The notes beneath the pieces are model-generated. The model saw nothing but the letters and a program-made list of their open reading frames with translations, was not told the origin of the DNA and searched no databases. From an uncultured virus (IMG/VR IMGVR_UViG_3300023196_001660) (taxonomy: Duplodnaviria; Heunggongvirae; Uroviricota; Caudoviricetes; Crassvirales), in IMG/VR virus record IMGVR_UViG_3300023196_001660: a stretch of 64,000 nt of DNA; one strand, given 5' to 3'. This document shows, piece by piece, positions 21,294 through 64,000 of this stretch. The position numbers and the translations under genes are program-made. The first letter of the stretch is position 1; each line of letters starts with the position of its first letter.

Positions 21294-21992
21294 ATGGAGA
21301 ATTTATTTATCTCAAGAGTTAACCTTATAGCCAAGGACGCTAAAGGTAAACCAATTAACATTGTAGTTATTGCGACTACTAACGGTAAATCGAACATTGT
21401 TCGTAATCATCAACAATTCTTACAAGACCTTAAGAATAGTTTTTTAATTGATGATAGTATTACATCTATTATGCATCCAAGCGTAAGACGTGTACTTAAA
21501 GGTCTACGACGTGGAACAGTAAGTGGAGATATCACTTATACCAAGAAAGGAGATACGTATCTTGTAACTAAAGATAGTCGTGTTATAACTGATTTAACAC
21601 ATCCCGATTTTGGTACGTATGCCATTGGAGATGAAAGAGTATCTGAAGAAGATAGAACTCTTGTTGACGGGTTTCTTGACCTTGATACTACTATTGAACA
21701 CCAAACTGTATACGCAACAGCCGAAGCAACTGCACAAGCTAAATTGGCTATGCAAGGTGCTTTCGAACAGTTCGATGTTGTTGAAAATGCTCCTGTTGAC
21801 ACTCCTGTTGACGTTAAAGAGCCTGTATTAGACATTGTTGAACCTGCAACTGTTGACGCCATTGTAGGTAAGAAAGGNNNNNNNNNNNNNNNNNNNNNNN
21901 NNNNNNNNNNNNNNNNNNNNNNNNNNNNNNNNNNNNNNNNNNNNNNNNNNNNNNNNNNNNNNNNNNNNNNNNNNNNNAAAGGCAAGAAATAG
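21294..21992 (+). CDS. Hypothetical protein, first gene of the rightward unit (spans an N gap)
   Basis: Open frame with a Pro/Val/Asp-rich repetitive tail; true length uncertain because of the gap. Confidence 0.7.
   Translation: MENLFISRVNLIAKDAKGKPINIVVIATTNGKSNIVRNHQQFLQDLKNSFLIDDSITSIMHPSVRRVLKGLRRGTVSGDITYTKKGDTYLVTKDSRVITDLTHPDFGTYAIGDERVSEEDRTLVDGFLDLDTTIEHQTVYATAEATAQAKLAMQGAFEQFDVVENAPVDTPVDVKEPVLDIVEPATVDAIVGKKXXXXXXXXXXXXXXXXXXXXXXXXXXXXXXXXXXKGKK
21878..21977. other. Assembly gap (100 N)
   Basis: Run of N; the flanks share aaagg, so the real gap may be about zero. Confidence 0.95.
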
Positions 21993-28322: not shown

Positions 28323-29726
28323 ATGGTATATACTACAGACCAAAATCAAGCATTAGATAGTATGCTTATATGGAGTAAAGCTCCTATTAAAAGTCCTTTA
28401 GATTTTTTATATACTTTAGATGGTGCAGCTGGAACAGGTAAAACTACAATAGTAAGAGCGTTTTTACATGGACTTAAATTAAGTACAAGTAAGATTGCTG
28501 TAACAGCTCCAACACATAAAGCTAAAAAAGTAATACAAGAAGCTACAGACTATAATAGCCAAACTATTCAAAAACTATTAGGTTTAAGACCTGATACACA
28601 AATGGATGATTTTAATCCTAACAAACCTGTATTTATGCCTTTAGGTGAAGATGAAATACAATACTATAAATATGTTATCATAGATGAAAGTAGTATGTTA
28701 AATGCTGAAGCTTTTAACCTTATTAAGAAACGTGCTATTAAATATAAAGTACGTATAGTTTTTTTAGGAGATGCTTTTCAACTTCCACCTATTAATGAAC
28801 GTATTAGTAAAGTATTTAGTGATGTACCTCATAAAAGTACACTAACAACCAATGTAAGACAAAGTGAAGATAATCCTATGATTAACATACTATCTATGCT
28901 ACGTAAAGATGTAGAATTTGGTACTGAATGGGGCATAAAAGATTTAATTAAGATTAAACATCATATTAATGGAGAGAAAGGCTTTCAATGTCTATCTACT
29001 GAAGCTAATAATGGATTTGGAGAAACTTCATTTGGTGCTGAATTACTACCTTATTATTTTAGTAGTGAATATGATGTAAATAAGAATCATATTAAATTCT
29101 TATCATATACTAATGATAGTATTGAAAAATGGAGTGAAGCATTAAGAATTAAAATACTTAAAGAAAAAGCTGAAAATATTATAAATGTAGGAGAGATACT
29201 TACTGGTTATAATAGTATCATAGATAATAGAACTAATAGTCTTATAATTGAAAATAGTGAAGATTACACTATATTAGAAATAGACAAAGGTACATCTAAT
29301 TTTGGTATTGATGGCTTTTATACCAGACTTGAAAATAGCAGAGGTTCTGAAAGAGTTGTTTTTATTGTAGACCATAGAAATATTGATAAGTTTAAAGAGA
29401 TATGTACACAGAAACTTAATATAGCTGTAGCACGTAGAGGTGGTTATTGGAGAGCTTATTATGCTTTTAAAAATACTCATTTACTTCTTAAAAACATTTC
29501 TAAAAATAGTAAAGTACCTACTAATCAATACGGTAATTTACTAGCTAAAAAAGATTTATATTATGGTTACGGTTGTACTGTACATAAATCTCAAGGTAGT
29601 ACATATGATAATGTTGCTATTAACTTACAAAATATCTATAAGAACTATGATATTAGTGAAAGAGCTAGATTAATATATGTTGCATTAAGTAGAACTAAAA
29701 ATATGAACTTAATATTAGTGAAATGA
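28323..29726 (+). CDS. SF1B (Dda/RecD-like) DNA helicase
   Basis: GAAGTGKTT, APTHKA, IIDESSM, GDAFQLPP, TVHKSQGSTY, YVALSR. Confidence 0.92.
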   Translation: MVYTTDQNQALDSMLIWSKAPIKSPLDFLYTLDGAAGTGKTTIVRAFLHGLKLSTSKIAVTAPTHKAKKVIQEATDYNSQTIQKLLGLRPDTQMDDFNPNKPVFMPLGEDEIQYYKYVIIDESSMLNAEAFNLIKKRAIKYKVRIVFLGDAFQLPPINERISKVFSDVPHKSTLTTNVRQSEDNPMINILSMLRKDVEFGTEWGIKDLIKIKHHINGEKGFQCLSTEANNGFGETSFGAELLPYYFSSEYDVNKNHIKFLSYTNDSIEKWSEALRIKILKEKAENIINVGEILTGYNSIIDNRTNSLIIENSEDYTILEIDKGTSNFGIDGFYTRLENSRGSERVVFIVDHRNIDKFKEICTQKLNIAVARRGGYWRAYYAFKNTHLLLKNISKNSKVPTNQYGNLLAKKDLYYGYGCTVHKSQGSTYDNVAINLQNIYKNYDISERARLIYVALSRTKNMNLILVK

Positions 29727-48109: not shown

Positions 48110-51100
48110 CTATTTATCAAATGTTTGAATAGTATAGTTAATATTTTTATATACTTGAGTTCCAAATGGTAAAGCTTGTGCAGTTTCTCGTAGAAGTCGG
48201 CTATGACCAGCATATACTCCACTAGCTATCTCATCATCACCGATAGCAAATCTTCTAACAGCTTCCATCCAATCTCCTGCATCTTTTACTAAACTAGCAG
48301 CAGGTATTAAATCCCTAAGTAAACTCCTAAATTCGCCAGGATGTATATAAAATAGTATATCAGTTTTAAGTCTTATACCTTGATTAATTAATAAATTAAG
48401 AGCATACTTCTTTTTAGCATCTTTTTCATCATCTAGATTTCCTACCATTGTCTTTAATAATAAGTAAGAACCATATATACCTGTAACTAATACTATTTCC
48501 ATCATTACCTTTCTCATATTTTGTGCATCTATTTCTTTAAGAGTAGTGCCTTCTTTTATATCGTCATAATCTTCAAATAATGTGTTACTAAATGCTTTAC
48601 CAAGTGTTACATTTCTAACTAATCCTTTAAGCATATTAAGTGTAGCTTTACCTGTTCCTACAGCTTTAAAGTAAGTCATAAGACTTCTATATCTACCTTT
48701 ACGTACACCAAGTAATGCATCAGGTTTTTCATTTTCAAATCTAGTAGCAAGTCCTTCAAACATCCAAGTTCTAAATTGACTTAAAGCTCTACCTAAAAAC
48801 TTATTCTTAACTCTAATAGGAGAATTTCCATCATAGTTACCATGATTCATTTTATTAAGTTGGTCAAGTTTATTACGTAAGAACTTAACTTTCTTTTTAG
48901 GTTCTTCTCCATATTCAGCTTTCCATTCTCCATCATTATCATAAGCTTCCCACATATTAACTGTTCCTTTATCAGTGTCAATTTTATTATTCATCATTAA
49001 CGCTATCATTATAGGAGCTTGATTTAGATACTCAGTTCTTTGTGTTAAGTTATAAGGTGCTAACCATTTTTTATTTTTAGATAATTCAATATTTAAAGGA
49101 TTTTGAAATAACTCATGAGTTGCATCTTTTAATACATCCCATTTATCCATAAGACGTCTAATCTTTTTAGCATTAGTTGTTTCATATCTATTAAATGTCC
49201 AGTTTTTCATTAAGCTATCCCATACTAAACGATATGCTTTAGTAAGTTGACTAGAAGTATATAATGCACCACCAGCTGCTTCTATTTTATTAGATATAAA
49301 CCCAAAACCTATATTAGCAATAGCACTCATCATATTCCAACCCATACTTTTAAGTTGTACATACTTAAGTACTCCATCTCCTCTTTTACTCATTACGGCT
49401 ACTCCACCTATTTCTCCTATTTGGTCATTTAATGTAGTAGTATGTAATTTATGTTCTGTAGCATTTATTTTACCTTCTTTTAATTGTTTATCTAAATCAT
49501 CTAAAACTTTTCTATAATTAGCAATTCTTGCTTTTTCTTCTTTAGTATATATAAGAGTATCAGTTATACCTTCATTTTGTTTTGTCTTTCCATAAAATAC
49601 TTGAACAAAATAATCAAATTGTGCTTTAGTATTTATAAAACTATGTGTAGGTGCTTTAGGTTCTATTCTATTTCTATTATCTTTAAGTATCTCTCCTTTA
49701 CTATTTCTTTTAAATTCTACTTGTTTACCTAATATATTTTGAGCTAACTTAATACCATCTTCAATTCTAGCTTTATGTTTATAAGCTAATACTGTTAAAG
49801 CGTACACTCTTAATATTTTTGGTAAATCATAGGATTTTTGTTGAGCAAGTTTATCAGTAATTTCTTCTCCCCATATTTCCATATGATTGGCAGTAGGATT
49901 ATTACCTGTTTTCAACTTATGTTCTATAGCCTTAGTTTTAATATATGCGTGGTATTCTTGTGAATTATTAGTAACAAGATTAATTCCAAGTCGTTTCTCC
50001 TCTACTTCTGTTATAGGGTCTACAAATGCATTAGAAATATTACCTTCAATATTTATTCTACTACTTTTCTTCATACCATCTAATATAGGAGTTAATCCTA
50101 TTTTCATACCTTTATCTTTATACTCTTCAAAAAGTACTTTTTCAATATAAGGAATACCACTAAATGCTAATTGTCTTCTACTATTAGAAGGCATAACAGC
50201 TTTAAGTTGTTTATCAACCTCAACATAATAGTTATAGAACTCTAATAAATCAGCATTATTTTCAATAGTTTTAAAATTATTATCATAAAATTCTTCTCTA
50301 TTTGGAATATGATGTACAAAACTAGGAGAATTAAAATTTCTCCATTTTGTTAGTTTACTATGACTAGAAGTTTCCATATGATTATAATATCTATATGGAG
50401 AATTAGCAACTTTCCAATTTTCATATTCTCTAGAAGCATCAGCATCTCCATCAATTTCAGCTATCTCTATATCATATTTATCTGCTATACGTTCTAATCT
50501 ACCTTGTTTAAAGTTTTCATATTTCTCAAGTAGTTTAGCCTGAGTTACAATAAAATCATTAAAATGTGCTTCTCCTAAATTTTCTTTAAGTTCATCTATA
50601 TAAGCATTAGCTTCTTTTTGTACTTCTGCTGTAAGAGGAACTACAGGAAATAAATAATTTAGTTTAACTTGTAAAGTATTCTTTTTTGCCCATAATAATA
50701 AAGTATTATAATTACTAAATGTATTATCTTCTCTTAACATATTTTTAATAACACGTTGCCCCTTATCAAATGTAGTAGAATACCTACTTACTAAATGACC
50801 AGTAAGTTTATTATTTTCTGTACGTTGTCTGAAAACATCATATATTTCTTTATTCCCTGACCGTTTTAAAATAGGTCTTATCTTATCTTCTAAATTACCT
50901 AATTCAGAAAGTATTTCTTTTGTTTCATCTAAAGCATCTATGTTAGCATCTTTAAGAGATAAAAATACACTATCTAACATAGGATTATTAGAACGACTTA
51001 TATCTAAGTAATCACGTTGAAGTCCGTTAATATCTTTAAAATGATTAAAAATAGTTTCTACAGTTAAATCCGTCCCATGTTTTTTCATAAGACTTTCCAT

Positions 51101-54100
51101 ATATTTGTTCTCTAATACTACAAGAGTAGTTTCATGTCTATCTGCGTCACTTGCTATTTCATCAAATCTTTTAACTAAAGTTTTAGATTGTAAATCATCA
51201 TCATTAAATAGATTANNNNNNNNNNCTTTAGCTGTTTTCCAAAAATGAATAACTTTTCTAATATATAAAGTATCTTCTAAAGTAACTTTACGTTTAAGCA
51301 TTTCAGCAATTTCTTGCATATCTTGTTCACCTTTTACAGCAATATCAGCTAAACGTTGTAATTCCATAACGGATAAAATAGATTCGTCTTGTTCTCCCTC
51401 TTTATTTAGTCCATCACGTCTTTGTATAAGTTCTTCTAATACATCTTTAAGTTCTTCAACCTTTTTAAAATCTTTACGACTTTCGGCTTTTTCTATATTA
51501 CGTTCTAAAAATTGTATACGATTATTAACAGATTTAAGTATAGCTAATGCTTTATTAGTTTCTTGAGCAGGATTAAAATCATCTTGTAAATCATTTAAAT
51601 CTTGTCTTAAACTATCTATTACATTTTGATTAGAATATTCTGCAATATAAGCATTTTTACCTGTAAGAAGGATATCTATTATTATATCTCTTATCTCACT
51701 TTCATCTGTTATACCTTCTTCACTAAAATTATTTTCCCAAATTTCATGTGCTGCTTGTTGGACACTTTTTCCATTTTTACTTAATAAAGTAGGATTAATA
51801 TCTTGTTTAGTTCCTGTATTTACACCTGTTTCTTTTTTAGCTGAATCAGGAAGTATTTTAGGAAGTAAATTAGCAATAATAATATTAGGACTAGTTTCCA
51901 TTAAAAGTTTTTGTTCTTCTAATGCTTGTTGTATTTCATTTTCAATAGATACTCCTTCTAATTTCTTATTTTCTCTAATAAGTTCTTTACGTTTATTTTC
52001 TGCAACATTCTTTTTATATTCAGCAGTTTCAGTATAACCTTTAGGAAGTATAGGTTGATTAAATAAATCAATACTTTTATTTTTCTTAATATTTAATTTT
52101 CCTGTATCATACCATTCTTTACTAAAAATAACATTAGAAGGAATATTTCCTGCTTTATTAAACATATCAATCATTTCAGTTCCAGAGTATCCATTTAAAG
52201 TAACTTCAGTTAATTTGTTTCTATAAGCTATTTTAAAATCTTTTTCCATATGATTAGCTAATATATAAAGTTTTTTAATACTTCTTATAATAGTTTCTTT
52301 AGGTATAGAACGTAATCCTTTATTTTTAGTTATTCTTAAATCTTTAGTAGGTAACGCATATGCATTTCCTTGTAGTCCTTCTCCTTTACCATATATAGCT
52401 CCAAATTGAGTTTTAGCTATTAAAGCAGCTCCTTTACCATGTCTTCCCTCAGGATTACTACCAAATACAAAAATTGTATCTTTTTCAGGAACTATACTAC
52501 CTGTGTAATACATTGCATTATCTATTACTGTAGCTTGTAAATTAGTTACATTATCTTTTACCCAATTTACTACTTCTTGTGGATTATCTATTACTTTATT
52601 AGTACCATCTTCATTTTTTAATTTAAATAGTTCTTCTACAAATTCAGGAGTTCTAATTACTTTAGTCTTTTTTTGTATCTCCCCTTTAACAACAGAACTT
52701 GGAGCTGGTTGCTTAATTAAACTAATAATATCTTTGGTAGCATATTCTAAAGCACTTCCTTTCTTAATATCAATTCCTATAGAAGCAAGTAAATCTACAA
52801 TAGTATCCCATAATTTATCTAACATAGATTTACCTTTAATATCACTAGGAGTATTATTAAGTATTTCTTGTAGTTTTTGAGATTTAAATAACCTACCTAC
52901 AAATTCAACATCACTAAGTACAGGATATATTAATTCTTTTTCTTCTATATTAAGTGGTTTCTGTTCATTTATTTTCTTTTGGGTTCTAGCAAATTTAATA
53001 TCAGCACCTTCTCCAATATAACTTCTAACAGCTTGTTCAGCTTGTACTCTTATTCCTTTTAATCTAGCAACTTCACCAGTAGCATTACTATTTAATGCTT
53101 CTTTAGTATAAGCATGTATAATTTCTTCAAGTATAGTCTTTTCAAAAGCTTGTATATCTGCATTAAGATTAGGGTTTACTTTTATCGTTTTATCTCTATT
53201 ATTGTGGCTTCCTTGTACCTTTAGATTGCTATCTACAATAAAAGCATAATCTTTTAACTTATCTAAATTATTGTGTAACTCCTGTGCTAAAAATGAATGA
53301 TATTTATTATCACTATTATTAATTATCTTATTAAGTATATAACTAAATTTACCTAAAGAAGTATCATTACTTTTTAAATCATAATAATCACTAATAGTAG
53401 CATTAAATGGGTCAGCTATAATTTCAGCATCTTCACTAGTTTCTTTAGGTATATCTAATGCAGCATCTATTTCTTCTATGCTTTCAGGAAGTGTTATTTT
53501 TGTTACTTCTGGTACTTGGTTATAAGGTATAATAGTTTTACCAAAATAACTATTAGCATCATATTCAAAAATATCTTTATATCCTAAAGTATCTACTTGT
53601 TCCCATTGTTTAGATACAACATTTCTACTATATAGTTTATATCCTGAAACTGTTTTATCATTTGGAATACTAAACAAATTAGGTAAATTAGTAACTTCTT
53701 TTTTAGTTTGTCTTATTATAGTACCATTATTATAGAAACCAAAGTTTTTAGTAAGATTTTCAGTATTCTTTAACTCAACTTCTTGAGGATTATGTTGAAT
53801 AAATTGTACTCTATAAGCTCTAGTATTAAATTGGTCTTCATCTAGAAGATTCATAGTATCTATACTATTATAATATCCAATAGCTTTTAGGTAATTAATA
53901 GGTACATACTTTATAAACTGTTTAGCTTTCTGTACTCCACCAGCAAGTAATTGATGTGTTATCAAATCTTGCATAACTTTCTTAGGAGTATATTGTATTC
54001 CATTAAATTCTCCTAACTGTGTTGTATCATCAGTAAGCATTTGAGATACAGCAGCATAGATAGAACGTTCATTAATATTTTCAGCAGTAGCAGCATTATA

Positions 54101-57100
54101 CTCTACTGTACTAGGAAGTAAAACTTTTTTACTAACAATTTTAAGTCTATTAATGAAACTATTTCTTAATTTATTATTTTGTCTTAAATCGTTTACAATA
54201 GTAGATATGGATTTATTAGTATCACTATCTACAAATAATCTTTGTCTTTCAGATACTACATTACCATCAGTATAAGTATTAGGAAATTTAGTAGCTAAGA
54301 AACTTTTAATACCACTAAAAACTGTTCTATTAATATCAGCTTGTTCTTGTATACTTTCTCCTCTATTTCCAGTAACATTTTTAATAGAATCTGTAACATC
54401 TTTTATACTACTTAAATTATAAGGAAAGAAACCTTCTTGTCCCCATATACGATTATTAAGAAGTAAAGCATAAACACTTGCAAACCCATTAATAGTAGTA
54501 GGTTTTATAAATTGTATAGTATCTTTAATATCTCCTTTTATAGTTATAGTTTTAACAGGGATATAACCTGCTTCTTTTACCTCATCTAATATTTCTCTTT
54601 TTCGTTCTTTAGATAGTTTACCATTATACCATTCCTTTCTTATACTACCTAATTCTGTTTTAGAAGATACCTCATTATCAGGAATAATATCTCCTTGTCC
54701 GTCTACTAATGTAAAATAATCTCCTATAAGATTACTAGCATTAGCTATATAAGCATTAAAACCTAAATCTAAAATTTGTGTTTCCTTAGCACTTGAATAA
54801 AATAAATCTTTACCTAATCCAGCACTATCTGAATTAATAGAAGATTGCACTAATTGAAGTCTTTTACCATATTTAGAAAGTTCTACAAATCTATTAAGAA
54901 GAGCATGTTGTACATCAGAATTTATAAGTCCATCTGTTCCACTAAAAGGAGTATCTAAACTATGAGTTTGAATATCTTTTAACATATCTTCTTTAGATGG
55001 ACTTCCAAATACACTCATAAATACATTAGGAGGCATTAATAAAGCTTCATCTGTTAAAGGAAACATATTACCTAAATCTCCTTCTATTTGTTCTACTTTA
55101 TAACTAGTAGCTGTATCTTCTGCTTTAATTTTTAATCTAATATATTCTCTAATAATAGGTTGATTCATAAAGTAAAATATAACATCTTCTTCAAACCCAC
55201 TAAAAGCTAAAGTTCGTATTGCATCAAAAGTATGCTTATTTATATTAAGCTTATGCATACCTTGTTCATTCTCATTATCTACAGATAAAGCTTGTAAAGC
55301 TACTACAATATCAAATTTAGTACGAGAGTTATTTCTATCATTAGTTTCTAATACAGATAAATCATTACTATGTTGCCCACCTAATGCAAATCCATAAGGA
55401 ACAACACCTCCTTTAACAGGTTTAGTAAGATATATATCTTTATCTTGCATAGAAGCTAAAAATGTATCATCAGTGCTAAATACACCTACACCACTTTTAG
55501 CAGCTCTGGCATTTCTATATTTATATGTTTGGTATTCTTCTGAAGCTCCTATACCCTTTACAATTTTATCTATACTAGGATATATTGTATCAATAACTTC
55601 AAATAACTTACCAAAACTAAGAGGTTCCATAATTAGAGCTTGTACTTTCTCATCAGTACTTCCAAGTATAGAAAAATGTAAATCTAAAATATCATCTTGA
55701 AGTTGTTTACTTCTATCTTCTCCTTTAAATTTAAAAAGTTTTCCGTCTTTAAATGTAGTATTATAACTATTAGTAAATAATTTATCTATATCAAAATCAC
55801 TTCCCATTTGTATAGTAAAATCAGGTGGAGCAATAAGTAAATCACCACTTCGCTTAGGTAAGAAACCTACTATTTTAACATAAGTCATAGAATTTAACAA
55901 ATGTGTTGGAATACGAAATCCAAATAGTTCTAAAAGTCTAGGTGGTAATTTAGTAATATCTATTAAACCGTTATCAGTTGTAAAATCTTCTATATTAAGA
56001 GAATTTCCATCATCGTCTTTAAATCTAAAGGGTGCTAATACTTCAGCAGGTTTAGTTACAGCAGTAGCTTCATCAAATCCTTCTTCTCCTCTCAATTTAC
56101 CTGTTGCATCTTCAACTCTCATAGGAAGTAACTTCTTATCTCCTCTACTATACCACTCTTTATCATAAATAATATCTCTATTATTTTGCATAAATTGAGT
56201 AGCTTTACCTGCAGTCTCGATTAAATCAAATCCTTTAGAAGTTCCTAATATAAAAGATTTACCTTTAGGCTTAATCTTTCTAACTCTATTATCTATAATA
56301 GAATTTAACATAGCTTCAAATTTACCACTTACACCAGTAAGCCATAAAGGTACTGTAAACTTATCTTTACTAAGTTTTAAGGCTTCTAAATCATATAAAG
56401 GGTATTTACGAGATAACGCTTCATTAATAAGAATTTTTTGAAGTTTTTCCATATTAAGAGTTCCCTCTTCAACATCATATCCTAACTCATCAATTAACTT
56501 CTCATATTGTATTTTAAATAATTCATTATATTTTCTATCTAATTCATCTTGTATTCTTTGACCAGTAACTAATTCTGTTGAGGTTCTCTTTAATTTAAAA
56601 GATTTTAAAGCTCTAACAGGAGCAGTTAATAGTTTTCTTTGTTGAGTACCGTCATTAATATAATCTACATCATCTTTATAAGGCATTTCTTGTTGTATTT
56701 TAAAGCCTTCTCTTGGTACACCAACTATCTTATCTATCTTACCTTTTTCTAGCATACCTTTTGGGTATCTAGTTCCTCCAATTTTAACAGCACTTTCAAA
56801 AGCAACTCTATCTATTTTCTCTTTCAGCATTTGCTTTCGTAATTTATCTAATTCTAATCCTTTAGTAAGTTGCTTAAATAAAGGAAAAGCAGAAGATTTA
56901 ACATAAAATCTATGTTCTAAACCATCTTTCCATATATTATTTACATAGACAGGTTTCATAGGTTGTAAAATAACTTTTAATTCTTCTTCTGTTATCTCAA
57001 TTTCATTGTCATCTTTGAAAAGTATTTCTTTGGCTTCTGCTTCACTAATAGTACCCTTTAAAGTAAGAATATGGAGGTGTTCCTTTAAGGTAGTAAATTC

Positions 57101-60100
57101 TTGAGCATCAGTACTATTAACTTTCATATACTTGCTTGCCTTATTACCTAAAAGACCTTTATAGTAATCCATTAGATATGCAGGTGCAACTGTATCAGCT
57201 ATAATACCATAAGTAAGAGTTTCATTAGGACTATTAGGTATATCAGTACCAGGAGCACTATCAGCTCCAAGACGTTTGCCCATATTATCAAATAAATCTT
57301 CATGCTCTTGTAACCAATCTTCTTTAGTATAATATTGTAAAGTTTCTTTTCGACTAGTAGGGTAATCTAATAAAGTATGTGTACCATCTTCTACTAACCT
57401 ATCTACTACTTTTTCCCAATGTTTAGATTTCCAATAAAATGCAGGGTCAGTTGTAAAAGTTTGAAAGATATTTACATTAGCTACTAAATAATTTAATACA
57501 AAATTAGTAGCATTATGAAATGCAGAAATTTCATCGTTTGAATCTGTATGATATTTTAAAGTTTCTGTAGTAACATCTACTAATGTATTAGTATTATGGT
57601 CTAATATAGTAGCAGTCTCACTTTTAATAAAACCGTATTCTTTCCATGTAGCTAATTTACTATTAACAAGGTTAAACAAAAATATACGTAATTCTTCTTT
57701 AATAGCTTCTCTTAAAACACCTTGTTCAGATACATTAGATTTAAGTTTTCTAACACTTCCGTCTTGTTCCCAAATACTAGTTAAACTATTTAAAGAAGGA
57801 ATAATATTAAACATAGTTCCACCTTCTTCATAAGCTTTAATATCCCATGCTTCAGGAGTATCTTGAATAGATAATATCCTATTTATATCAGGTGTTACTA
57901 AAGCATCATATAGCCATTCTAAACTATTATTTCCCATTTTACCTGTAGAACTAATTCTACCATTCCAATCATGTCCTATTGTAGTAAGTCCATAAGATAC
58001 GCTTTTATCAGAAGTAGTAGGATATAATAAATTAAGTATATTATTATTTCCTCTTTTATTTTTACTATAAAATAAAGCTATTTTAACTTCTTCTATTTCA
58101 GCAGGTGACATATGTTCTAATTTCTTACCTTTAGCACCTTCTTTACTTCTACCATCAAAAGTATAATATCCAAAATGTTTTCTAAATTTCTTATTTTCTC
58201 TAAATTGCTTAACAAAATGAGAAGTCTTACTAAATGGTTGTTTTGCTAGTTTATCTAGTAAAACAGTATCAGTATGTAATCTTCTAACTCTATCCGTTAA
58301 AAACTTATTTGGACTATAGCCATAATATGTTCTTCCTCTAACATCTTTAAAAGAATTAGTAAAATATACAGGATGTTGTTTACCTATTTGTCTTGCAAAT
58401 TTACCTAAAGCACTATTATTTGCTAAAGGGTTATTATCATCTACATTTAAACCTTTAATCTTATTAAGATTATCCATATATAATCCAATAGCACCATCGC
58501 TTTTACCAGAAAGCAAATTAAGTAGATTATATCTATTATTATTATATACAACACCTTCATTAATTAGAGTGGTTATAAGTTTTCTAGGAAATTTAAAACC
58601 CATTCTATCTAATAAAGCTGTAGCTTTATCTATTTTAATAGTACCATCTATACCTTTTTGTTTTAATGTGGCTATAACATCTTTATAATCTCTATTAATA
58701 GCTTCTACTTCTCTTTCATTTATAATGTAATTTTCATCAACAACAGATACTAAGTTACTATCATAAATATTACTTAACCATTGATTTTGGATAATTCCTA
58801 CAACATCATTTGAATCACTAGGTACAATAAATAGTCCACCTTTTTTATTCTTAAATATATACATATGATGTGTATAACTTTTACTCATAGCACTTACAAA
58901 CTTATTTTTCATAGTTTGTGGAGCATTATTAAGCTCTTTAAGTACATTATGTAAGTAAGGTTTTGTTTCCACCCATTCCTCTAATGTAGTAATCATACTA
59001 TCAAAAGTAGGTATTGTAATATTTCTATTATCTTCTTTGTAATTACTATAAGCAAGTATAGCACTTAATTCATTCATTACTTGGTCAAATGGAATTGTAA
59101 CAGGTAATGCCCAACTCATTTTAGGAATTGCTACACCTTCTTTAGTAATAGATTTTACATCTTCTATGTAACTAAATTGATTTTTAATATCTTGACTTAA
59201 TTGTCTTTTAAAATCTACTCTAAAAGCTCTATCACTTGCATAAATATTATATTCAACTAGTTCTCCTTTATCATTAATAAGTTCTTCAAAATCATCATAT
59301 CCTATTTCATCGTTATCTAATTGAGTTTTAATTTCTTCAAATACTTTTCCATCTTTTACTATACCATGATGTTGATGTAGGTTATCTAATACTAATTTAA
59401 CTATTTTCTTATATTCTCTTTTAACATTATTAGCAATTTCTAAATTCTTAGTTGCTCTTTTTCTTTTTTCTTCAGTTAAGTCAGTTTTTAGTCCTTCTTC
59501 TATTTTATTAATACGTTGTCTAATTTCTACATTAGCAAACTCATCTAGTACTGTTAAAGCATCATCATTACTTTTGTCTTTATATAAAGCTTTTAATACC
59601 TTAGAAGTTAAGTGATTAATTATAATATCTTGTAAATTCATACTTACACCTTTAACAAAAAGACTTTCAGGAATAGTACCTTCAAATTCATCTTGTTCTT
59701 CTTGTGTAAGTTCTCTAGGATTATAATCATCACCATAATCAGATAAACTAAGAAGTCCTTTTAATTGACGTGTAGTTAAATCAGATAAAGCTTCTACTTT
59801 ATTAAAACCATCTTTTTTACCACCACTTATATAAGGTCTTAATTTACCACTTGCATCTACAAAGAAACTATATACTTCAGTATAATTTTGTTCAATAGTA
59901 TAAACATTAAACTGATTTCCATCCCAACCTATAGTAAATAAATCACCTACATCTAAACCACCATACTCTTCTTGAATTTCTTCGGGTAATACTTCCATAG
60001 GAGTATTAATTGCAAATACTTTACCTACTGCATCATTTAAAGAAATTTCTTGTGCAGGATTATAATCAGTATCATCATCAACATCTTCAAATATATCAAA

Positions 60101-63100
60101 TTCACCAGTTTCTTCTTCAGCATCTATAACTTCTATAGTACGTATATCAGGAACATCTGTAGTTTCATCAGCTACTTTAGGTGCAAAGGCAAAAGCTGTA
60201 CCATATTCAAAATTAGGTTGTACTGTGTATATCTCCTTATCATTATCTAGGGTATAAGAATATAAATCAGTAGTTGTATGTTCTTTAACAAACTTATCAT
60301 AAGGCATTTCAGTTGTAGTAACATCGTTAGCAGTTATAATAGGTAGTTGAAAAGAACTATCAAAAGATTCTTTTTTAAAGTTTAAGTATGTATTATTATT
60401 AAGTACGTTTTCTAGTTTAGCAAGATATCCATCTATAGTAGCTCTTCTTTTACTAGCTCTCTCAGTATCATTTAATCCTTCTTTCTTTCCTATATTATTT
60501 ATAATATTTCTATTAATAAATCTTATAGTATCTCCTACATTAGCACCTCTACCAAATTCTAAACTATTACTTTTAGGGTCACTAGATGCAGTTATTAATC
60601 TAATGACAGATACATCTTCTCTTACATTATTTTCAACATAATTACTAAATTTATCAAACATAAAAGAAGCCTTATCTAATTTAGGACTTAAAAATATAAA
60701 TTTTTCTAAATATGTTTGTAAACCATTTAAAGTAGTTATATCTATATTAGTTTGTTCTCTTAATTTAATAGCTCTACTCGCATTAGGATTAGCATTTAAA
60801 TATAAACGTACTGCTTCTAATATAGATTTAATATATTGAGGATGTTTATTTAATAAATCCCGTCTAACAGGTACACCAAATTTAGCATCTTTATTTACAT
60901 CCATTACAGCATACATCATTCCATTATATACTGTATCATTTTGGGTTTCTATTGTGTTACTTTCTCCTGTAAACATAGCATCATCTTTTCCAATAGCCAT
61001 TGTAACATTTGGAAGATTTTTTAATACTGTATCATATACAGCATTAACATCACGCATAAAATGCCCATTAGTCCTATTCTTAATAGTAGTGGTTACTCCA
61101 TTAGGAGACTCTATAATAGCTTTTCTTATTACACGAAGATTTTTTTGTTGTCTATCTACATCTTTAAAGTTAGCAATAGTATTTTCACTTATCCATTCAG
61201 GTACATGAAGATAATGTCCTTTAAGTATTTCCCCGTTAAAAAGAACACCAATCGGTGCAGTTTCTACAGGATTATTTTTAGTAGTAACTCCATTACTTTC
61301 TACACTACCATCTGCATACGATATAGAACCATCATCATGAACAACTTTAGGAAGTACTACTAAAGTAATTGCATCTCCTTTATTAAATCTATCATAATCT
61401 AATGCTATATGAGAAGCATTATCATTAAGTTCTTTATCTAAGTCTGTTTTAGAAGTTACAAAATCTAATACATTAAATCTTTCAGTAGTTTGTACCGTAA
61501 CTAATTCAACATATTTTTTATCTAAATGAGCAAGATTAATATCTCCTCTTTTAATTTTTACATCACCATTAATTGCACTATCTCCTTTATATACAACAAA
61601 ACCTTGTTGTTCTATACTTTCTCGTACAGTTTTATCTTCTTTTTGGCTAAAATTTATATCACTCATAGAGTAAATTTCATTGAAAGCCTTAGTTGCATCA
61701 ATGCTTACTCTATTTGAGATAATACTTCTTTTAGTAGCATCGTCAAAAAATATGTCCTCATAAGTTAAATTAGTAGGTTGTCCTACTTTGGTAAGATTAT
61801 AAAGAGCTTTTACTTCATCAAATATTCTAATAAATTTAGCCTTACCTACAGCCTTTTGTATAAATTCAGCAACAGTAGGAAAATCTGTAATATCTAAACC
61901 AGCATCTTTCATAGAGTTTAGACCTATTTGTACTAATCTCTTACGCTTAATTAAAGCCTCTTCTTCTTCACTAAGTCCTCCCTCATCTTCTTCAGCAGGA
62001 TTTAAATCTTCAAATGCATTTTTTATGTCATCTTCTGCTTTTTGAGTAGCTTGGTCATTAGTTTCTTCAGTAGCCTGTTCTTGTTTTTGTTGAACTTTAA
62101 GATGTCTTATAGCATTTTGATATTGTACTAACATACCTGCATTACTTGGACTATCAGGTAAAGCTTTAGTTGCTTCAATACTTGCTTCAAATCCTTTTAT
62201 TTTATTTTCTACGGTATTAGCACTATTAATAAATGCAGTAGCCTGTTCTTGTTGTTGCTTATCAGCAAAATTAAATGCAAAGCCTACAGTATCTTCTATA
62301 GTTTCTACTTCTTCTACTTCTGCTACTTCTTCTTCTGTTTCAGCTTCTTCTACTTCTTCAGCAATCGTATCTTCTTCAAACTTTTTAGCAGTTTGTTTAG
62401 CTTTAGTAGCTTTTTTAGTTTGTTTAGCTTGTACTCTAGCTTCAGCTTGTTCTTCTTTTCTACGTTTCTTTTGTTCTTTTATTACATTACTAATTCTATC
62501 TTGTTCTTCATCTGAAGTTAGTTTAGTATGTCGTTCAGCAAGACGTTTAATATTATTAACTACATTAGTTACTTTATCTTTAGTATCTTTATATTCTTTT
62601 AAACTTTGTAAGTTATTAACAGATGCTTTTTTAGTTGCACCATACTTATTCCAATTATTAAAAGAAATTCCACCAGTTTCACTAAAAGTAATTACATCTT
62701 CTTTAATGCCTAAATCAGCTAAATCCTGTATTACTTCATCACGTTCAGTTTGTAGTGTACGTTCTAATTGAGCTTTAGTATCTCTTAATCCTAAATTTTT
62801 AGCTCTATTATCATATACTTCATTGAAGTTTAAATATGTGTTAGCTTTAAGATATTCAGTTTCTAAATTTTCTATACGTTTAATAGCTTTATCGGAATCT
62901 TGCTTATATGTTTTCTTATCTAAACCTCTTTGTTCGGCAACATCAGGGTCTAATTCTTTAATACCTTTAAAGACATTTACATACTGTTCAGTAGTACCAT
63001 TAACGAAAGAATCATAAGCTTGAACACTTACTAACCTATCGCTTAACTCTTGTACTCGGGCAAAATCTCCTTTATTTCCAGCATCTTCTAATTCTTTATA

Positions 63101-64000
63101 TAGATTAAAAGTTTCTTCGGCTTTAAAATAAGCGTCTGTAACGTCACTTATTTTTGAAGCATTATCTAAAGTACTAATCTTGTCTAAACTCTCTTGTTGC
63201 TTGGTAAAACGGTCAAATTGCTCGTCATTTCGGCTAAATCTGTTACCTTGATTATCTCTTTTATTCCTAATATTTCGACCTGCATTAGTAAGAGCAGTTT
63301 GACCTGCACCACCAACAAATCCTAAAAGAGCACTTTCAGCACCTTCTCTAGTAGCGATATCCTTAATAGCTTTATCAAACGTATAATTATCACTTAAAGC
63401 TTGTTCTTCGGCTACTAAGTTAATAGTTTCTTCAGCAGATTCTTGAAGTCCCTCAATACCAGCTATTTTAGCACTTCTTTTAAGACTAGGAGCTTTTCTT
63501 AATTGTCTAGTTAAAGCAGGTGCTCTAAGAAAGGCAAAAGAACTTGTAAGATTAAGTAATATATTACTTCTATTAAAATTAACTACAGATGCAGCTTTTT
63601 GAGAAGCTAATAATTTAGCTTCTGTATCTATTTGTTCATCAGATAGTCCTTTATCTTCTTGTTTTAATTTTTTAATAGTTTCACCATATACTTGTTCATA
63701 TACATTAGCAGCTATGCCAACACCTTCAGCTTGATTAAGAGCTAAAGCAGTAGAAAGTCCTGAAGCAAGTCCCATACCTTTTTTAGCTTTATCTGTAGTA
63801 GATGCTCCACGTCCTATAGCTTTTAACCATTCTAAAGCTTTTCCACCTTTAGTTAAGAGTTTTAAACTTGCTCCACCTGTAAGATAACCTAAACCAACAA
63901 AAGCAGTAGCACTTTCAACTAAAGAACTACCACTTTGCATCCACCATGCATAATCTCCTACATCAAGAGCTCTATCAGGATTTTCTCGATATGTAGGTAA
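48110..64000 (-). CDS. Giant virion RNA polymerase/cargo polyprotein (>5296 aa, 5' end outside the window)
   Basis: Frame is open for 20 further codons above the track's Met at 63940 (LPTYRENPDRALDVGDYAWW); GFRIPTH and GSDFDIDK (55784-55798) two-barrel RNAP motifs as in crAss-like virion RNAPs; zincin-like and Macro-like domains. Confidence 0.9.
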   Translation of the reverse strand, partial: LPTYRENPDRALDVGDYAWWMQSGSSLVESATAFVGLGYLTGGASLKLLTKGGKALEWLKAIGRGASTTDKAKKGMGLASGLSTALALNQAEGVGIAANVYEQVYGETIKKLKQEDKGLSDEQIDTEAKLLASQKAASVVNFNRSNILLNLTSSFAFLRAPALTRQLRKAPSLKRSAKIAGIEGLQESAEETINLVAEEQALSDNYTFDKAIKDIATREGAESALLGFVGGAGQTALTNAGRNIRNKRDNQGNRFSRNDEQFDRFTKQQESLDKISTLDNASKISDVTDAYFKAEETFNLYKELEDAGNKGDFARVQELSDRLVSVQAYDSFVNGTTEQYVNVFKGIKELDPDVAEQRGLDKKTYKQDSDKAIKRIENLETEYLKANTYLNFNEVYDNRAKNLGLRDTKAQLERTLQTERDEVIQDLADLGIKEDVITFSETGGISFNNWNKYGATKKASVNNLQSLKEYKDTKDKVTNVVNNIKRLAERHTKLTSDEEQDRISNVIKEQKKRRKEEQAEARVQAKQTKKATKAKQTAKKFEEDTIAEEVEEAETEEEVAEVEEVETIEDTVGFAFNFADKQQQEQATAFINSANTVENKIKGFEASIEATKALPDSPSNAGMLVQYQNAIRHLKVQQKQEQATEETNDQATQKAEDDIKNAFEDLNPAEEDEGGLSEEEEALIKRKRLVQIGLNSMKDAGLDITDFPTVAEFIQKAVGKAKFIRIFDEVKALYNLTKVGQPTNLTYEDIFFDDATKRSIISNRVSIDATKAFNEIYSMSDINFSQKEDKTVRESIEQQGFVVYKGDSAINGDVKIKRGDINLAHLDKKYVELVTVQTTERFNVLDFVTSKTDLDKELNDNASHIALDYDRFNKGDAITLVVLPKVVHDDGSISYADGSVESNGVTTKNNPVETAPIGVLFNGEILKGHYLHVPEWISENTIANFKDVDRQQKNLRVIRKAIIESPNGVTTTIKNRTNGHFMRDVNAVYDTVLKNLPNVTMAIGKDDAMFTGESNTIETQNDTVYNGMMYAVMDVNKDAKFGVPVRRDLLNKHPQYIKSILEAVRLYLNANPNASRAIKLREQTNIDITTLNGLQTYLEKFIFLSPKLDKASFMFDKFSNYVENNVREDVSVIRLITASSDPKSNSLEFGRGANVGDTIRFINRNIINNIGKKEGLNDTERASKRRATIDGYLAKLENVLNNNTYLNFKKESFDSSFQLPIITANDVTTTEMPYDKFVKEHTTTDLYSYTLDNDKEIYTVQPNFEYGTAFAFAPKVADETTDVPDIRTIEVIDAEEETGEFDIFEDVDDDTDYNPAQEISLNDAVGKVFAINTPMEVLPEEIQEEYGGLDVGDLFTIGWDGNQFNVYTIEQNYTEVYSFFVDASGKLRPYISGGKKDGFNKVEALSDLTTRQLKGLLSLSDYGDDYNPRELTQEEQDEFEGTIPESLFVKGVSMNLQDIIINHLTSKVLKALYKDKSNDDALTVLDEFANVEIRQRINKIEEGLKTDLTEEKRKRATKNLEIANNVKREYKKIVKLVLDNLHQHHGIVKDGKVFEEIKTQLDNDEIGYDDFEELINDKGELVEYNIYASDRAFRVDFKRQLSQDIKNQFSYIEDVKSITKEGVAIPKMSWALPVTIPFDQVMNELSAILAYSNYKEDNRNITIPTFDSMITTLEEWVETKPYLHNVLKELNNAPQTMKNKFVSAMSKSYTHHMYIFKNKKGGLFIVPSDSNDVVGIIQNQWLSNIYDSNLVSVVDENYIINEREVEAINRDYKDVIATLKQKGIDGTIKIDKATALLDRMGFKFPRKLITTLINEGVVYNNNRYNLLNLLSGKSDGAIGLYMDNLNKIKGLNVDDNNPLANNSALGKFARQIGKQHPVYFTNSFKDVRGRTYYGYSPNKFLTDRVRRLHTDTVLLDKLAKQPFSKTSHFVKQFRENKKFRKHFGYYTFDGRSKEGAKGKKLEHMSPAEIEEVKIALFYSKNKRGNNNILNLLYPTTSDKSVSYGLTTIGHDWNGRISSTGKMGNNSLEWLYDALVTPDINRILSIQDTPEAWDIKAYEEGGTMFNIIPSLNSLTSIWEQDGSVRKLKSNVSEQGVLREAIKEELRIFLFNLVNSKLATWKEYGFIKSETATILDHNTNTLVDVTTETLKYHTDSNDEISAFHNATNFVLNYLVANVNIFQTFTTDPAFYWKSKHWEKVVDRLVEDGTHTLLDYPTSRKETLQYYTKEDWLQEHEDLFDNMGKRLGADSAPGTDIPNSPNETLTYGIIADTVAPAYLMDYYKGLLGNKASKYMKVNSTDAQEFTTLKEHLHILTLKGTISEAEAKEILFKDDNEIEITEEELKVILQPMKPVYVNNIWKDGLEHRFYVKSSAFPLFKQLTKGLELDKLRKQMLKEKIDRVAFESAVKIGGTRYPKGMLEKGKIDKIVGVPREGFKIQQEMPYKDDVDYINDGTQQRKLLTAPVRALKSFKLKRTSTELVTGQRIQDELDRKYNELFKIQYEKLIDELGYDVEEGTLNMEKLQKILINEALSRKYPLYDLEALKLSKDKFTVPLWLTGVSGKFEAMLNSIIDNRVRKIKPKGKSFILGTSKGFDLIETAGKATQFMQNNRDIIYDKEWYSRGDKKLLPMRVEDATGKLRGEEGFDEATAVTKPAEVLAPFRFKDDDGNSLNIEDFTTDNGLIDITKLPPRLLELFGFRIPTHLLNSMTYVKIVGFLPKRSGDLLIAPPDFTIQMGSDFDIDKLFTNSYNTTFKDGKLFKFKGEDRSKQLQDDILDLHFSILGSTDEKVQALIMEPLSFGKLFEVIDTIYPSIDKIVKGIGASEEYQTYKYRNARAAKSGVGVFSTDDTFLASMQDKDIYLTKPVKGGVVPYGFALGGQHSNDLSVLETNDRNNSRTKFDIVVALQALSVDNENEQGMHKLNINKHTFDAIRTLAFSGFEEDVIFYFMNQPIIREYIRLKIKAEDTATSYKVEQIEGDLGNMFPLTDEALLMPPNVFMSVFGSPSKEDMLKDIQTHSLDTPFSGTDGLINSDVQHALLNRFVELSKYGKRLQLVQSSINSDSAGLGKDLFYSSAKETQILDLGFNAYIANASNLIGDYFTLVDGQGDIIPDNEVSSKTELGSIRKEWYNGKLSKERKREILDEVKEAGYIPVKTITIKGDIKDTIQFIKPTTINGFASVYALLLNNRIWGQEGFFPYNLSSIKDVTDSIKNVTGNRGESIQEQADINRTVFSGIKSFLATKFPNTYTDGNVVSERQRLFVDSDTNKSISTIVNDLRQNNKLRNSFINRLKIVSKKVLLPSTVEYNAATAENINERSIYAAVSQMLTDDTTQLGEFNGIQYTPKKVMQDLITHQLLAGGVQKAKQFIKYVPINYLKAIGYYNSIDTMNLLDEDQFNTRAYRVQFIQHNPQEVELKNTENLTKNFGFYNNGTIIRQTKKEVTNLPNLFSIPNDKTVSGYKLYSRNVVSKQWEQVDTLGYKDIFEYDANSYFGKTIIPYNQVPEVTKITLPESIEEIDAALDIPKETSEDAEIIADPFNATISDYYDLKSNDTSLGKFSYILNKIINNSDNKYHSFLAQELHNNLDKLKDYAFIVDSNLKVQGSHNNRDKTIKVNPNLNADIQAFEKTILEEIIHAYTKEALNSNATGEVARLKGIRVQAEQAVRSYIGEGADIKFARTQKKINEQKPLNIEEKELIYPVLSDVEFVGRLFKSQKLQEILNNTPSDIKGKSMLDKLWDTIVDLLASIGIDIKKGSALEYATKDIISLIKQPAPSSVVKGEIQKKTKVIRTPEFVEELFKLKNEDGTNKVIDNPQEVVNWVKDNVTNLQATVIDNAMYYTGSIVPEKDTIFVFGSNPEGRHGKGAALIAKTQFGAIYGKGEGLQGNAYALPTKDLRITKNKGLRSIPKETIIRSIKKLYILANHMEKDFKIAYRNKLTEVTLNGYSGTEMIDMFNKAGNIPSNVIFSKEWYDTGKLNIKKNKSIDLFNQPILPKGYTETAEYKKNVAENKRKELIRENKKLEGVSIENEIQQALEEQKLLMETSPNIIIANLLPKILPDSAKKETGVNTGTKQDINPTLLSKNGKSVQQAAHEIWENNFSEEGITDESEIRDIIIDILLTGKNAYIAEYSNQNVIDSLRQDLNDLQDDFNPAQETNKALAILKSVNNRIQFLERNIEKAESRKDFKKVEELKDVLEELIQRRDGLNKEGEQDESILSVMELQRLADIAVKGEQDMQEIAEMLKRKVTLEDTLYIRKVIHFWKTAKXXXXNLFNDDDLQSKTLVKRFDEIASDADRHETTLVVLENKYMESLMKKHGTDLTVETIFNHFKDINGLQRDYLDISRSNNPMLDSVFLSLKDANIDALDETKEILSELGNLEDKIRPILKRSGNKEIYDVFRQRTENNKLTGHLVSRYSTTFDKGQRVIKNMLREDNTFSNYNTLLLWAKKNTLQVKLNYLFPVVPLTAEVQKEANAYIDELKENLGEAHFNDFIVTQAKLLEKYENFKQGRLERIADKYDIEIAEIDGDADASREYENWKVANSPYRYYNHMETSSHSKLTKWRNFNSPSFVHHIPNREEFYDNNFKTIENNADLLEFYNYYVEVDKQLKAVMPSNSRRQLAFSGIPYIEKVLFEEYKDKGMKIGLTPILDGMKKSSRINIEGNISNAFVDPITEVEEKRLGINLVTNNSQEYHAYIKTKAIEHKLKTGNNPTANHMEIWGEEITDKLAQQKSYDLPKILRVYALTVLAYKHKARIEDGIKLAQNILGKQVEFKRNSKGEILKDNRNRIEPKAPTHSFINTKAQFDYFVQVFYGKTKQNEGITDTLIYTKEEKARIANYRKVLDDLDKQLKEGKINATEHKLHTTTLNDQIGEIGGVAVMSKRGDGVLKYVQLKSMGWNMMSAIANIGFGFISNKIEAAGGALYTSSQLTKAYRLVWDSLMKNWTFNRYETTNAKKIRRLMDKWDVLKDATHELFQNPLNIELSKNKKWLAPYNLTQRTEYLNQAPIMIALMMNNKIDTDKGTVNMWEAYDNDGEWKAEYGEEPKKKVKFLRNKLDQLNKMNHGNYDGNSPIRVKNKFLGRALSQFRTWMFEGLATRFENEKPDALLGVRKGRYRSLMTYFKAVGTGKATLNMLKGLVRNVTLGKAFSNTLFEDYDDIKEGTTLKEIDAQNMRKVMMEIVLVTGIYGSYLLLKTMVGNLDDEKDAKKKYALNLLINQGIRLKTDILFYIHPGEFRSLLRDLIPAASLVKDAGDWMEAVRRFAIGDDEIASGVYAGHSRLLRETAQALPFGTQVYKNINYTIQTFDK
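51216..51225. other. Assembly gap (10 N) inside the giant ORF
   Basis: Run of N; the frame reads plausibly on both sides. Confidence 0.95.

Follow-up and report, generated by a model that had tools for sequence, protein, structure and literature searches.

An uncultured virus of the Crassvirales (IMG/VR record IMGVR_UViG_3300023196_001660) encodes, in the 64,000-nucleotide stretch of its DNA analyzed here (the window), a giant cysteine-free fusion of virion cargo proteins and an RNA polymerase. Sequence comparison indicates that a short acidic motif, D-(L/F/Y)-x-P, marks the joints of this protein, and likewise those of its fused relatives, exactly where the chain is divided into separate genes in other phages. 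The motif makes a good candidate signal for cutting or docking. Our tentative interpretation is that the junction motif is read by one common factor, and that this factor would most likely be a protease.

The translation of the giant open reading frame (ORF; window 48110-63940, minus strand; P0001 in the comparisons below) contains exactly four copies of the pattern D[YFL]NP[AR][QE], hereafter sites 1 to 4 (Table 1). A first-pass annotation of the window had reported these four copies, at slightly wider coordinates, and the exact pattern match bears it out; the lengths that it had given for the segments between the sites (644, 641, 107, 2,710, and 1,150 amino acids [aa]) are also correct. Amino acid composition does not account for the frequency of the motif, as the comparison with a shuffled background that the annotation had proposed makes clear: 0.0015 copies are expected, and among 2,000 shuffles of the giant protein, 1,996 contained no copy, 4 contained one copy, and none contained two or more. 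Four of the 15 N-P dipeptides of the protein fall in the motif. The pattern was defined after it had been seen, and the chance figure is therefore generous; independent relatives nevertheless confirm the motif. In a six-frame translation of the window, limited to stop-to-stop ORFs of 100 aa or more, the four-residue core, D[YFL]NP, occurs five times, and four of these occurrences are sites 1 to 4. The fifth, in a Dda-like helicase (QMDDFNPNKP; 28608-28619, plus strand), falls outside the six-residue pattern and is probably due to chance. Residue numbers used here are offsets from the Met at position 63940, not from the true N-terminus.

The motif recurs throughout the family of fused proteins. 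A word-indexed search with aa 600-1500 among proteins of 2,901-9,233 aa gave one match, P0002 (5,643 aa). An exhaustive representative search found 34 proteins at E ≤ 0.001, among which 12 are giants (4,938-5,680 aa), and a search with the polymerase core found 270 proteins at E ≤ 1e−20, with the best 120 of the 270 in the matches listed. Single-sequence scans of IMG/VR with aa 1251-1500 and aa 2220-2930 returned no relative. The closest relative, P0002, is 53-64% identical per BLAST piece and is without the exact six-residue motif; at the four aligned sites it reads DLAP, NYAP, DLAP, and DLAP ([DN][LY]AP). BLAST homology between P0001 and P0002 is interrupted at aa 1295, 1405, 3804, and 4107, coinciding with sites 2, 3, and 4. 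In alignment A1 of 14 giants, Phi-x-P (Phi being L, F, Y, or M) is present at site 3 in 13/14 proteins, preceded by D, E, or N in 10/14, with YSSP in P0015; the corresponding counts of Phi-x-P are 9/14 for site 4 and 8/14 for site 1. Site 2 is restricted to proteins that have an inserted module ahead of site 3 (P0001, P0002, P0004, and P0005), and P0015 has two tandem motif copies within its insert.

Across 23 fused relatives, the 8,863 residues of junction windows contain 59 matches to [DEN][LFYM][ASNDT]P and the 111,420 residues elsewhere contain 57, a 13-fold higher density in the junction windows, with the three junction windows chosen in the knowledge of the sites of P0001. The conservation in fused relatives that the first-pass annotation had asked about is thus found family-wide. 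Among the 59 junction matches, the first position is D in 51 and the second is L in 45, the preceding residues are mostly acidic, and x is most often A (32 matches) or S (16), otherwise N (7), D (3), or T (1); the Pro is usually followed by K, L, A, or I. The family consensus can be written as [DE][DE]-D-[LFY]-x-P, where x is small (A, S, N, or D), and it stands a few residues ahead of the next conserved part.

The positions of the motif were compared with the gene breaks of split relatives. As the annotation had noted, the cargo proteins of phages phi14:2 and crAss001 are separate, and the giant protein is their fused form. Phage phi14:2 encodes, in this order, gp67 (1,797 aa), gp66 (2,180 aa), and gp65 (1,421 aa). 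In blastp searches, the giant protein matches gp66 (2.7e−22, ~22% identity) and gp65 (1.3e−06), and the profile of 14 giants matches gp66 (E = 5.3e−59) and the C-terminal part of gp65 (7.9e−16); phi14:2 gp67 gave no significant match (E = 7). For junction mapping, 122 relatives of at least 2,900 aa were aligned to the profile. The 10 proteins among them with a Cys in the first ten residues start at the equivalent of aa 1137-1499, and 8 of the 10 start at 1415-1499, just past site 3. A Cys in the last ten residues is found in 63 of the 122 relatives, of which 59 terminate at aa 3700-3810, just past the zincin-like domain and ahead of the variable region and site 4. Moreover, the shorter N-terminal proteins P0011, P0025, and P0029 finish with KKYC-x, a dozen residues past the site-3 position. 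The suggestion that gene boundaries might coincide with the motifs therefore holds for sites 3 and 4, which match the breaks of split relatives (junctions A and B, respectively), and fails for the gp66|gp65 boundary of phi14:2: it maps to ~aa 3360-3520, where two relatives end (~3465) and where P0001 has no motif. The motif is thus present at two of the three break points known.

The fused and split proteins also differ in their cysteines. Cysteine is absent from the giant protein and from 13/13 aligned fused relatives, as well as from 43/122 large relatives. In the split relatives (phi14:2, Fpv1, crAss001, and many metagenomic proteins), there are no or almost no cysteines other than those at the termini that face a junction. 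The cysteines of the three phages are Cys1797 of 1,797 residues in gp67, Cys3 and Cys2179 of 2,180 in gp66, and Cys3 in gp65 of phi14:2; Cys4400 of 4,401 in gp33 and Cys3 in gp34 of Fpv1; and Cys2339 of 2,341 in gp47, Cys5, Cys1334, and Cys2404 of 2,412 in gp50, and Cys5 in gp49 of crAss001. At the stop-start junction of phi14:2 gp66 and gp65, TGTAAA occurs on both sides. A ribosome hop or a promoter signal behind the terminal Cys codons of the phi14:2 junctions was considered and dropped, because crAss001 gp47 obeys the terminal-Cys rule even though it is encoded on the strand opposite to gp50 and gp49. In cyanophage A4, a Cys1715-Cys5 disulfide joins two ejection proteins, and the C-terminal helix of one docks into the next (structure described in PMC12002296). 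By analogy, this head-to-tail disulfide is a likely model for the junctions of the split relatives, whose terminal Cys pairs presumably form reducible links. The tail of crAss001 has disulfides, and cargo cysteines are not discussed in the part of that report that describes them (PMC10172136).

The link between split proteins lends weight to the main rival explanation, in our estimate somewhat less probable than a protease and raised by the annotation as a loading or ejection signal, that the motif is never cut and serves instead as a docking, loading, or tether signal. One partner shared by the sites (for example, the capsid interior, the portal or tail channel, or the next domain) would then organize the chain in the head or order its exit. 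Split proteins that appear to stay connected through terminal Cys pairs, together with the A4 disulfide, suggest that connection rather than separation is under selection. The giant virion RNA polymerase of phage N4 is reported to be packaged unprocessed and to act as tethered domains (PMC5512222 and PMC13434306). Split proteins P0025 and P0018/P0021 retain Phi-x-P followed by a short helix near their ends, which also suits a docking element. On the other hand, the proteins of phi14:2, crAss001, and Fpv1 must be loaded as well and contain no recurrent D-Phi-x-P copy, there is no obvious reason for a docking signal to bracket each inserted effector module on both sides, and no partner has been identified.

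A second line of evidence comes from the third residue of the motif, x, which tends to be the same at all sites of a protein. It is N at all four sites of P0001 and A at all four sites of P0002, P0004, P0041, and P0043; P0005 has S, D, D, and D, P0015, P0045, and P0050 are of the S type, and P0040 is of the N type. In a hand-curated table of 14 proteins, x is identical in 32 of 38 within-protein pairs, compared with a mean of 12.9 after permutation of x within sites; not one of 20,000 permutations attains 32. This control ignores relatedness. The informative events are separate shifts to N (in P0001 and in P0040, which is not a sister of P0001), a shift to D (in P0005), and exchanges between A and S. 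Composition bias was rejected as the source of N at x: Asn makes up 7.4% of P0001 and 8.6-9.0% of the proteins with A at all four sites. We found no signal of a residue co-varying with N-type x in the giants, in an underpowered comparison in which P0001 and P0040 uniquely share 11 columns versus 9-31 in six control pairs. We infer a single common reader for all sites, with a preference that drifts from lineage to lineage. This concerted variation and the conservation of position would suit any common reader, whether it is a protease or a docking partner.

The presence of N-P in all four copies of the giant protein raises the question of self-cleaving Asn-Pro bonds, through succinimide chemistry of the FlhB/YscU (NPTH) or reovirus mu1 type. 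Relatives, however, have A-P, S-P, or D-P in the aligned positions, which makes Asn dispensable, and as a family-wide mechanism self-cleavage is contradicted. The G-P required by a 2A-like skipping site is likewise absent after the sites. We consider either form of this explanation extremely improbable.

The segments between sites include accessory modules. Sites 2 and 3 of the giant protein bracket a 107-aa module (EISLND...LLSLSD) with homologues in the terminal-cysteine cargo-type proteins P0017, P0018, P0021, and P0027, in which the module ends with LSLSDA-x-E-[LI]-[VI]-P-K. In P0027, the 107-aa-type module lies right behind the N-terminal Cys, ahead of the polymerase part. An ART-PolyVal domain (PF18760, 4.9e−13, 50.5 bits, cut-off 31.2) makes up the 180 residues that separate two DLDP copies in P0005. 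Motif pairs flank inserts also in P0041, P0043, P0050, and P0062, and helicase domains are found in other relatives.

Such mobile modules would also be compatible with the motif being a cassette or recombination scar, which travels with the modules or marks joints in the DNA and whose copies are kept alike by gene conversion. The BLAST homology between P0001 and P0002 breaks off at the sites, as described above; the related E-[LI]-[VI]-P-K end accompanies the 107-aa module in other proteins; and a RecT-like protein is encoded in the window. Yet the DNA shared between sites amounts to ~12-15 bases of the commonest codons, too short for ordinary homologous exchange, and because all sites use the genome's commonest codons, the codons are uninformative on gene conversion between sites. 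Sites 1 and 4 do not adjoin mobile modules in most relatives, and the P0001 module has the look of a P0002/P0004 insert that was shortened internally, not of a cassette that was swapped in. We therefore regard a recombination scar as quite improbable.

Structure prediction places sites 2 and 3 in linkers. The annotation had described the sites as lying in acidic linkers at domain or module borders; these linkers are indeed variable and predicted to be unstructured, and where a model was made, the disorder that the annotation had asked about is predicted, at low confidence. In an AlphaFold2 model of aa 1130-1600 (14 sequences in a shallow alignment; mean predicted local distance difference test [pLDDT], 50.9), site 2 lies in a 68-residue coil with pLDDT ~25-32 and site 3 in a coil with pLDDT ~35. 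The helix past site 3 begins at Q1413, with T1412 as its cap, five residues beyond the Pro. If this low-confidence model is right, the motif is not a helix cap.

This bears on a further alternative, that the motif is a purely structural element at the end of a linker, in which a hydrophobic residue and Pro start the next helix or domain without any external reader. Every site lies a few residues ahead of a helix or a conserved domain, [ST/N/D]-P-x-E is a common helix start, and distant relatives retain a looser acidic-Phi-(x)-P at junction A. But the modeled helix after site 3 does not start at N1407-P1408, and Ala, which is the commonest x, is a poor cap residue. Furthermore, four unrelated downstream folds share the motif, and there is no structural reason for x to vary in concert within a protein. 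Overall, a purely structural role appears improbable to us.

We propose the following model. The giant ORF is the fused, cysteine-free version of the injected cargo chain of crAss-type phages, containing the equivalents of gp67, the gp66 polymerase, and gp65, along with accessory modules. The parts are joined by acidic linkers, predicted to be unstructured, each ending in a short linear motif of the D-Phi-x-P type. In the least certain step, a protease would cut the linkers during or after delivery, freeing the polymerase and the accessory modules. In peptide-bond form, the motif would then take the place of the terminal Cys pairs that presumably form reducible links in split relatives. The protease could be the embedded zincin-like domain or another enzyme of the phage or host, and a cut before or after Phi would suit a motif in which L, F, Y, or M is followed by a small residue. 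We rank a protease first because the motif replaces junctions with presumably reducible cysteines, because it brackets effectors on both sides, and because cleavage is expected in print: fused crAss-type forms are described as "likely cleaved" in the relevant passage of Drobysheva et al. (10.1101/2020.03.07.982082), and autoproteolytic release of domains is among the proposals made for polyvalent proteins by Iyer et al. (2017; PMC5512222). In a bolder version, which we think doubtful, one thread of more than 5,000 residues would carry a lineage-tunable code, D-Phi-x-P, and, once this thread is in the host, a protease with a co-evolving preference for x would cut every joint, releasing the polymerase and effectors such as ADP-ribosyltransferases. 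The chain would then be a phage counterpart of multi-effector toxins.

The zincin-like domain itself gives mixed indications. Its model (aa 3500-3800; 16 sequences) has a pLDDT of 86 and three strands ahead of the motif helix. VIA-align comparisons rank chain 8vb2_A of the PhiM1 ejectosome first (Z = 8.9, root-mean-square deviation [rmsd] 3.8, 144 residues aligned), and anthrax lethal factor matches with Z = 6.5 (rmsd 5.6, 157 aligned). Foldseek returned weak rows to minigluzincins (E = 0.4-0.9), with PDB entry 9pnr (from N4) among the weak rows. The modeled similarity to 8vb2_A suggests that unrelated podophages have this domain in common in their ejection proteins; no peptidase or protease is mentioned for this best match in the paper on the PhiM1 ejectosome. 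A complex prediction of the zincin-like domain with zinc and a 46-aa site-3 linker gave a score of 0.01 and a mark of 0.32, without controls, and counts neither way. In the 14/14 giants of alignment A1, the first His of the metal-binding motif is Glu, a variant found alongside the His form in the rest of the family; E3606, H3609, and E3679 do not vary.

Several observations, in addition to the chosen junction windows, the hand curation of the x table, and the missing motif at the gp66|gp65 boundary, weigh against cleavage at a commonly read motif. No cleavage product is known for any family member, and the N4 polymerase cited above is packaged without processing. The embedded zincin-like domain has EEIIH where Fpv1 gp33 has HEVIH and phi14:2 gp65 has HEIMH, and relatives fused at junction A (P0052 and P0056) keep HExxH and carry the site-3 motif, so that the occurrence of the motif does not follow the active-site variant. 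No recognizable protease was found among the 47 other ORFs examined in the window, which is a partial genome; the altered zincin-like domain is the one candidate, and no head protein seen in the window carries the motif. The concert of x is not absolute, since P0038 (A, S, S), P0042 (A, S, S), P0039 (A, N), and P0087 (S, A, S, S) are mixed. In more distant relatives, x can be Leu, Val, or Ile, or the element is reduced to Phi-P, which suits a structural element too. Finally, a tblastn search with aa 601-1450 against 50,697 phage records found no cultured relative, and the closest cultured phages, the Flavobacterium Fpv1/FpV4 group, have a polymerase part that is only ~25% identical. The hosts of phages with a fused giant of this clade would probably be Flavobacteriia-like.

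That fused crAss-type proteins might be polyproteins is an idea already in print (in passages of 10.1101/2020.03.07.982082 and PMC5512222). The motif, its match to the junctions of split relatives, and its concerted variation were not found in the literature searched (supplements of the cited papers aside). Fused crAss-type polymerases have been assumed to be cut at positions that were never stated, and the motif supplies exact candidate positions; its lineage-specific third residue is a natural specificity handle. The positional match between the motif and the terminal cysteines ties together two ways of building one injected chain, and poses the question of whether this chain must come apart in the host or merely hold together during ejection. 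The answer bears on the start of infection and on the delivery of accessory effectors in the most abundant order of gut and marine phages.

The features of the giant ORF are collected in Table 1. The 20 codons upstream of the Met at 63940, LPTYRENPDRALDVGDYAWW, agree with the family consensus. Because the frame is open to the window edge and these codons are consensus-like, the true protein is longer, and its N-terminus lies outside the window. The numbering from this Met in the first-pass annotation thus gave correct coordinates for a protein that extends further upstream. The window cuts the gene at 63941-64000 (minus strand), and relatives suggest ~170-190 further residues. Within MGSDFDIDK (aa 2712-2720), which spans the catalytic motif, M, G, S, D, F, D, D, and K are invariant in 14/14 giants. 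Pfam and PHROGs named no domain in the five segments of the giant protein except phrog_16227 and phrog_2072, and a relaxed Pfam scan of aa 3800-4120, the 107-aa module, and the zincin-like segment gave nothing above the cut-off. The "Macro" label that the annotation had attached to part of the chain is consequently not upheld: Pfam had nothing above the cut-off, and the PHROG match, phrog_2072, is of no known function. Runs of N are present at 51216-51225 (10 bases inside the giant ORF, giving XXXX at ~aa 4236) and at 21878-21977. Elsewhere in the window are a crassvirus major capsid protein (Crass_capsid, PF23898, 3.3e−65), a portal and a large terminase on the same strand as the giant ORF (PHROG matches, which also include the major head protein), and a replication block on the opposite strand.

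TABLE 1 Features of the giant ORF, with positions in the window
Feature	Position	Strand	Remarks
Cysteine-free giant virion cargo/RNA-polymerase fusion ORF	48110..64000	−	5,276 aa (codons) from Met at 63940; frame open to window end
N-terminal part, aa 1-644 as numbered	62009..63940	−	Family-conserved; corresponds to gp67-like region
Site 1, DLNPAE, aa 645-650	61991..62008	−	Acidic linker; equivalent Phi-x-P in 8/14 aligned giants
Conserved 641-aa domain between sites 1 and 2	60068..61990	−
Site 2, DYNPAQ, aa 1292-1297	60050..60067	−	Directly before 107-aa accessory module; coil, pLDDT ~25-32
107-aa accessory module, sites 2 to 3	59729..60049	−	Mobile domain; also in cargo-type P0017, P0018, P0021, P0027
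Site 3, DYNPRE, aa 1405-1410	59711..59728	−	Directly before conserved RNA-polymerase start; junction A of split relatives
RNA-polymerase part, ~aa 1411-3480	53501..59710	−	Homologous to phi14:2 gp66
DFDID catalytic motif, aa 2715-2719	55784..55798	−	Invariant in 14/14 aligned giants
Zincin-like domain, aa 3500-3800	52541..53443	−	AlphaFold2 mean pLDDT 86
EEIIH, aa 3605-3609	53114..53128	−	Aligned to HExxH of Fpv1 gp33 and phi14:2 gp65; first His replaced by Glu
Variable region, aa 3805-4106	51623..52528	−	Not common to closest relative; includes phrog_2072 domain (~aa 3809-3946)
Site 4, DFNPAQ, aa 4121-4126	51563..51580	−	Directly before conserved C-terminal helical part; junction B of split relatives
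C-terminal helical part, aa 4127-5276	48113..51562	−	Corresponds to C-terminal half of phi14:2 gp65 and to Fpv1 gp34

MARTX toxins and the polyproteins of picornaviruses and potyviruses have modules on linkers with a short recurring site matched to a protease; in MARTX toxins, this site is Leu|Ala/Ser/Gly, a hydrophobic residue followed by a small one, as in D-Phi-x-P. The giant protein shares the feature of a short motif recurring at domain borders in accessible linkers (coil, pLDDT < 50 at sites 2 and 3). In contrast to MARTX toxins, it has no embedded cysteine protease domain, and with no Cys in the giant protein or in its 13/13 aligned fused relatives, a cysteine protease within it is impossible. 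The cargo-loading peptides of encapsulins offer a different parallel, as a short motif past a flexible linker that binds the interior of an HK97-fold shell; they are usually single and terminal, whereas the giant protein has several internal copies.

Among virion-delivered proteins, polyvalent proteins of phages and conjugative elements (Iyer et al. 2017) combine many unrelated domains in one chain, including a zincin-like MPTase and ART-PolyVal, the latter found here in relative P0005. The giant protein similarly joins a polymerase, a zincin-like domain, the phrog_2072 domain, and the mobile 107-aa module in a single polypeptide. It differs from polyvalent proteins in having EExxH and a defined junction motif, no cleavage motif being named in the relevant sections of PMC5512222. 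N4 gp50, as described in PMC13434306, is also a giant polymerase that is ejected. Its N-terminal, catalytic, and C-terminal parts are loosely connected, and an HExxH domain lies beside the polymerase; it belongs to another polymerase family and is reported to be packaged unprocessed. The gp27-gp26 pair of cyanopodophage A4, in the account of PMC12002296, shows a head-to-tail terminal link, but this link is a disulfide between separate proteins and not a peptide linker.

The closest comparison is with the virion RNA polymerase sets of Crassvirales (phi14:2 gp67-gp66-gp65 and crAss001 gp47-gp50-gp49), for which virion packaging and ejection of cargo proteins are known for phi14:2 and crAss001 only (record notes and the cited part of PMC10172136). 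The giant protein resembles these sets in the order of its parts and in the DFDxD motif, a catalytic motif of two-barrel polymerases named in 10.1101/2020.03.07.982082, and its zincin-like element aligns with the HExxH of phi14:2 gp65. Unlike them, it is one cysteine-free polypeptide with a recurrent D-Phi-x-P at its joints, where phi14:2 and crAss001 have separate proteins with junction-facing cysteines.

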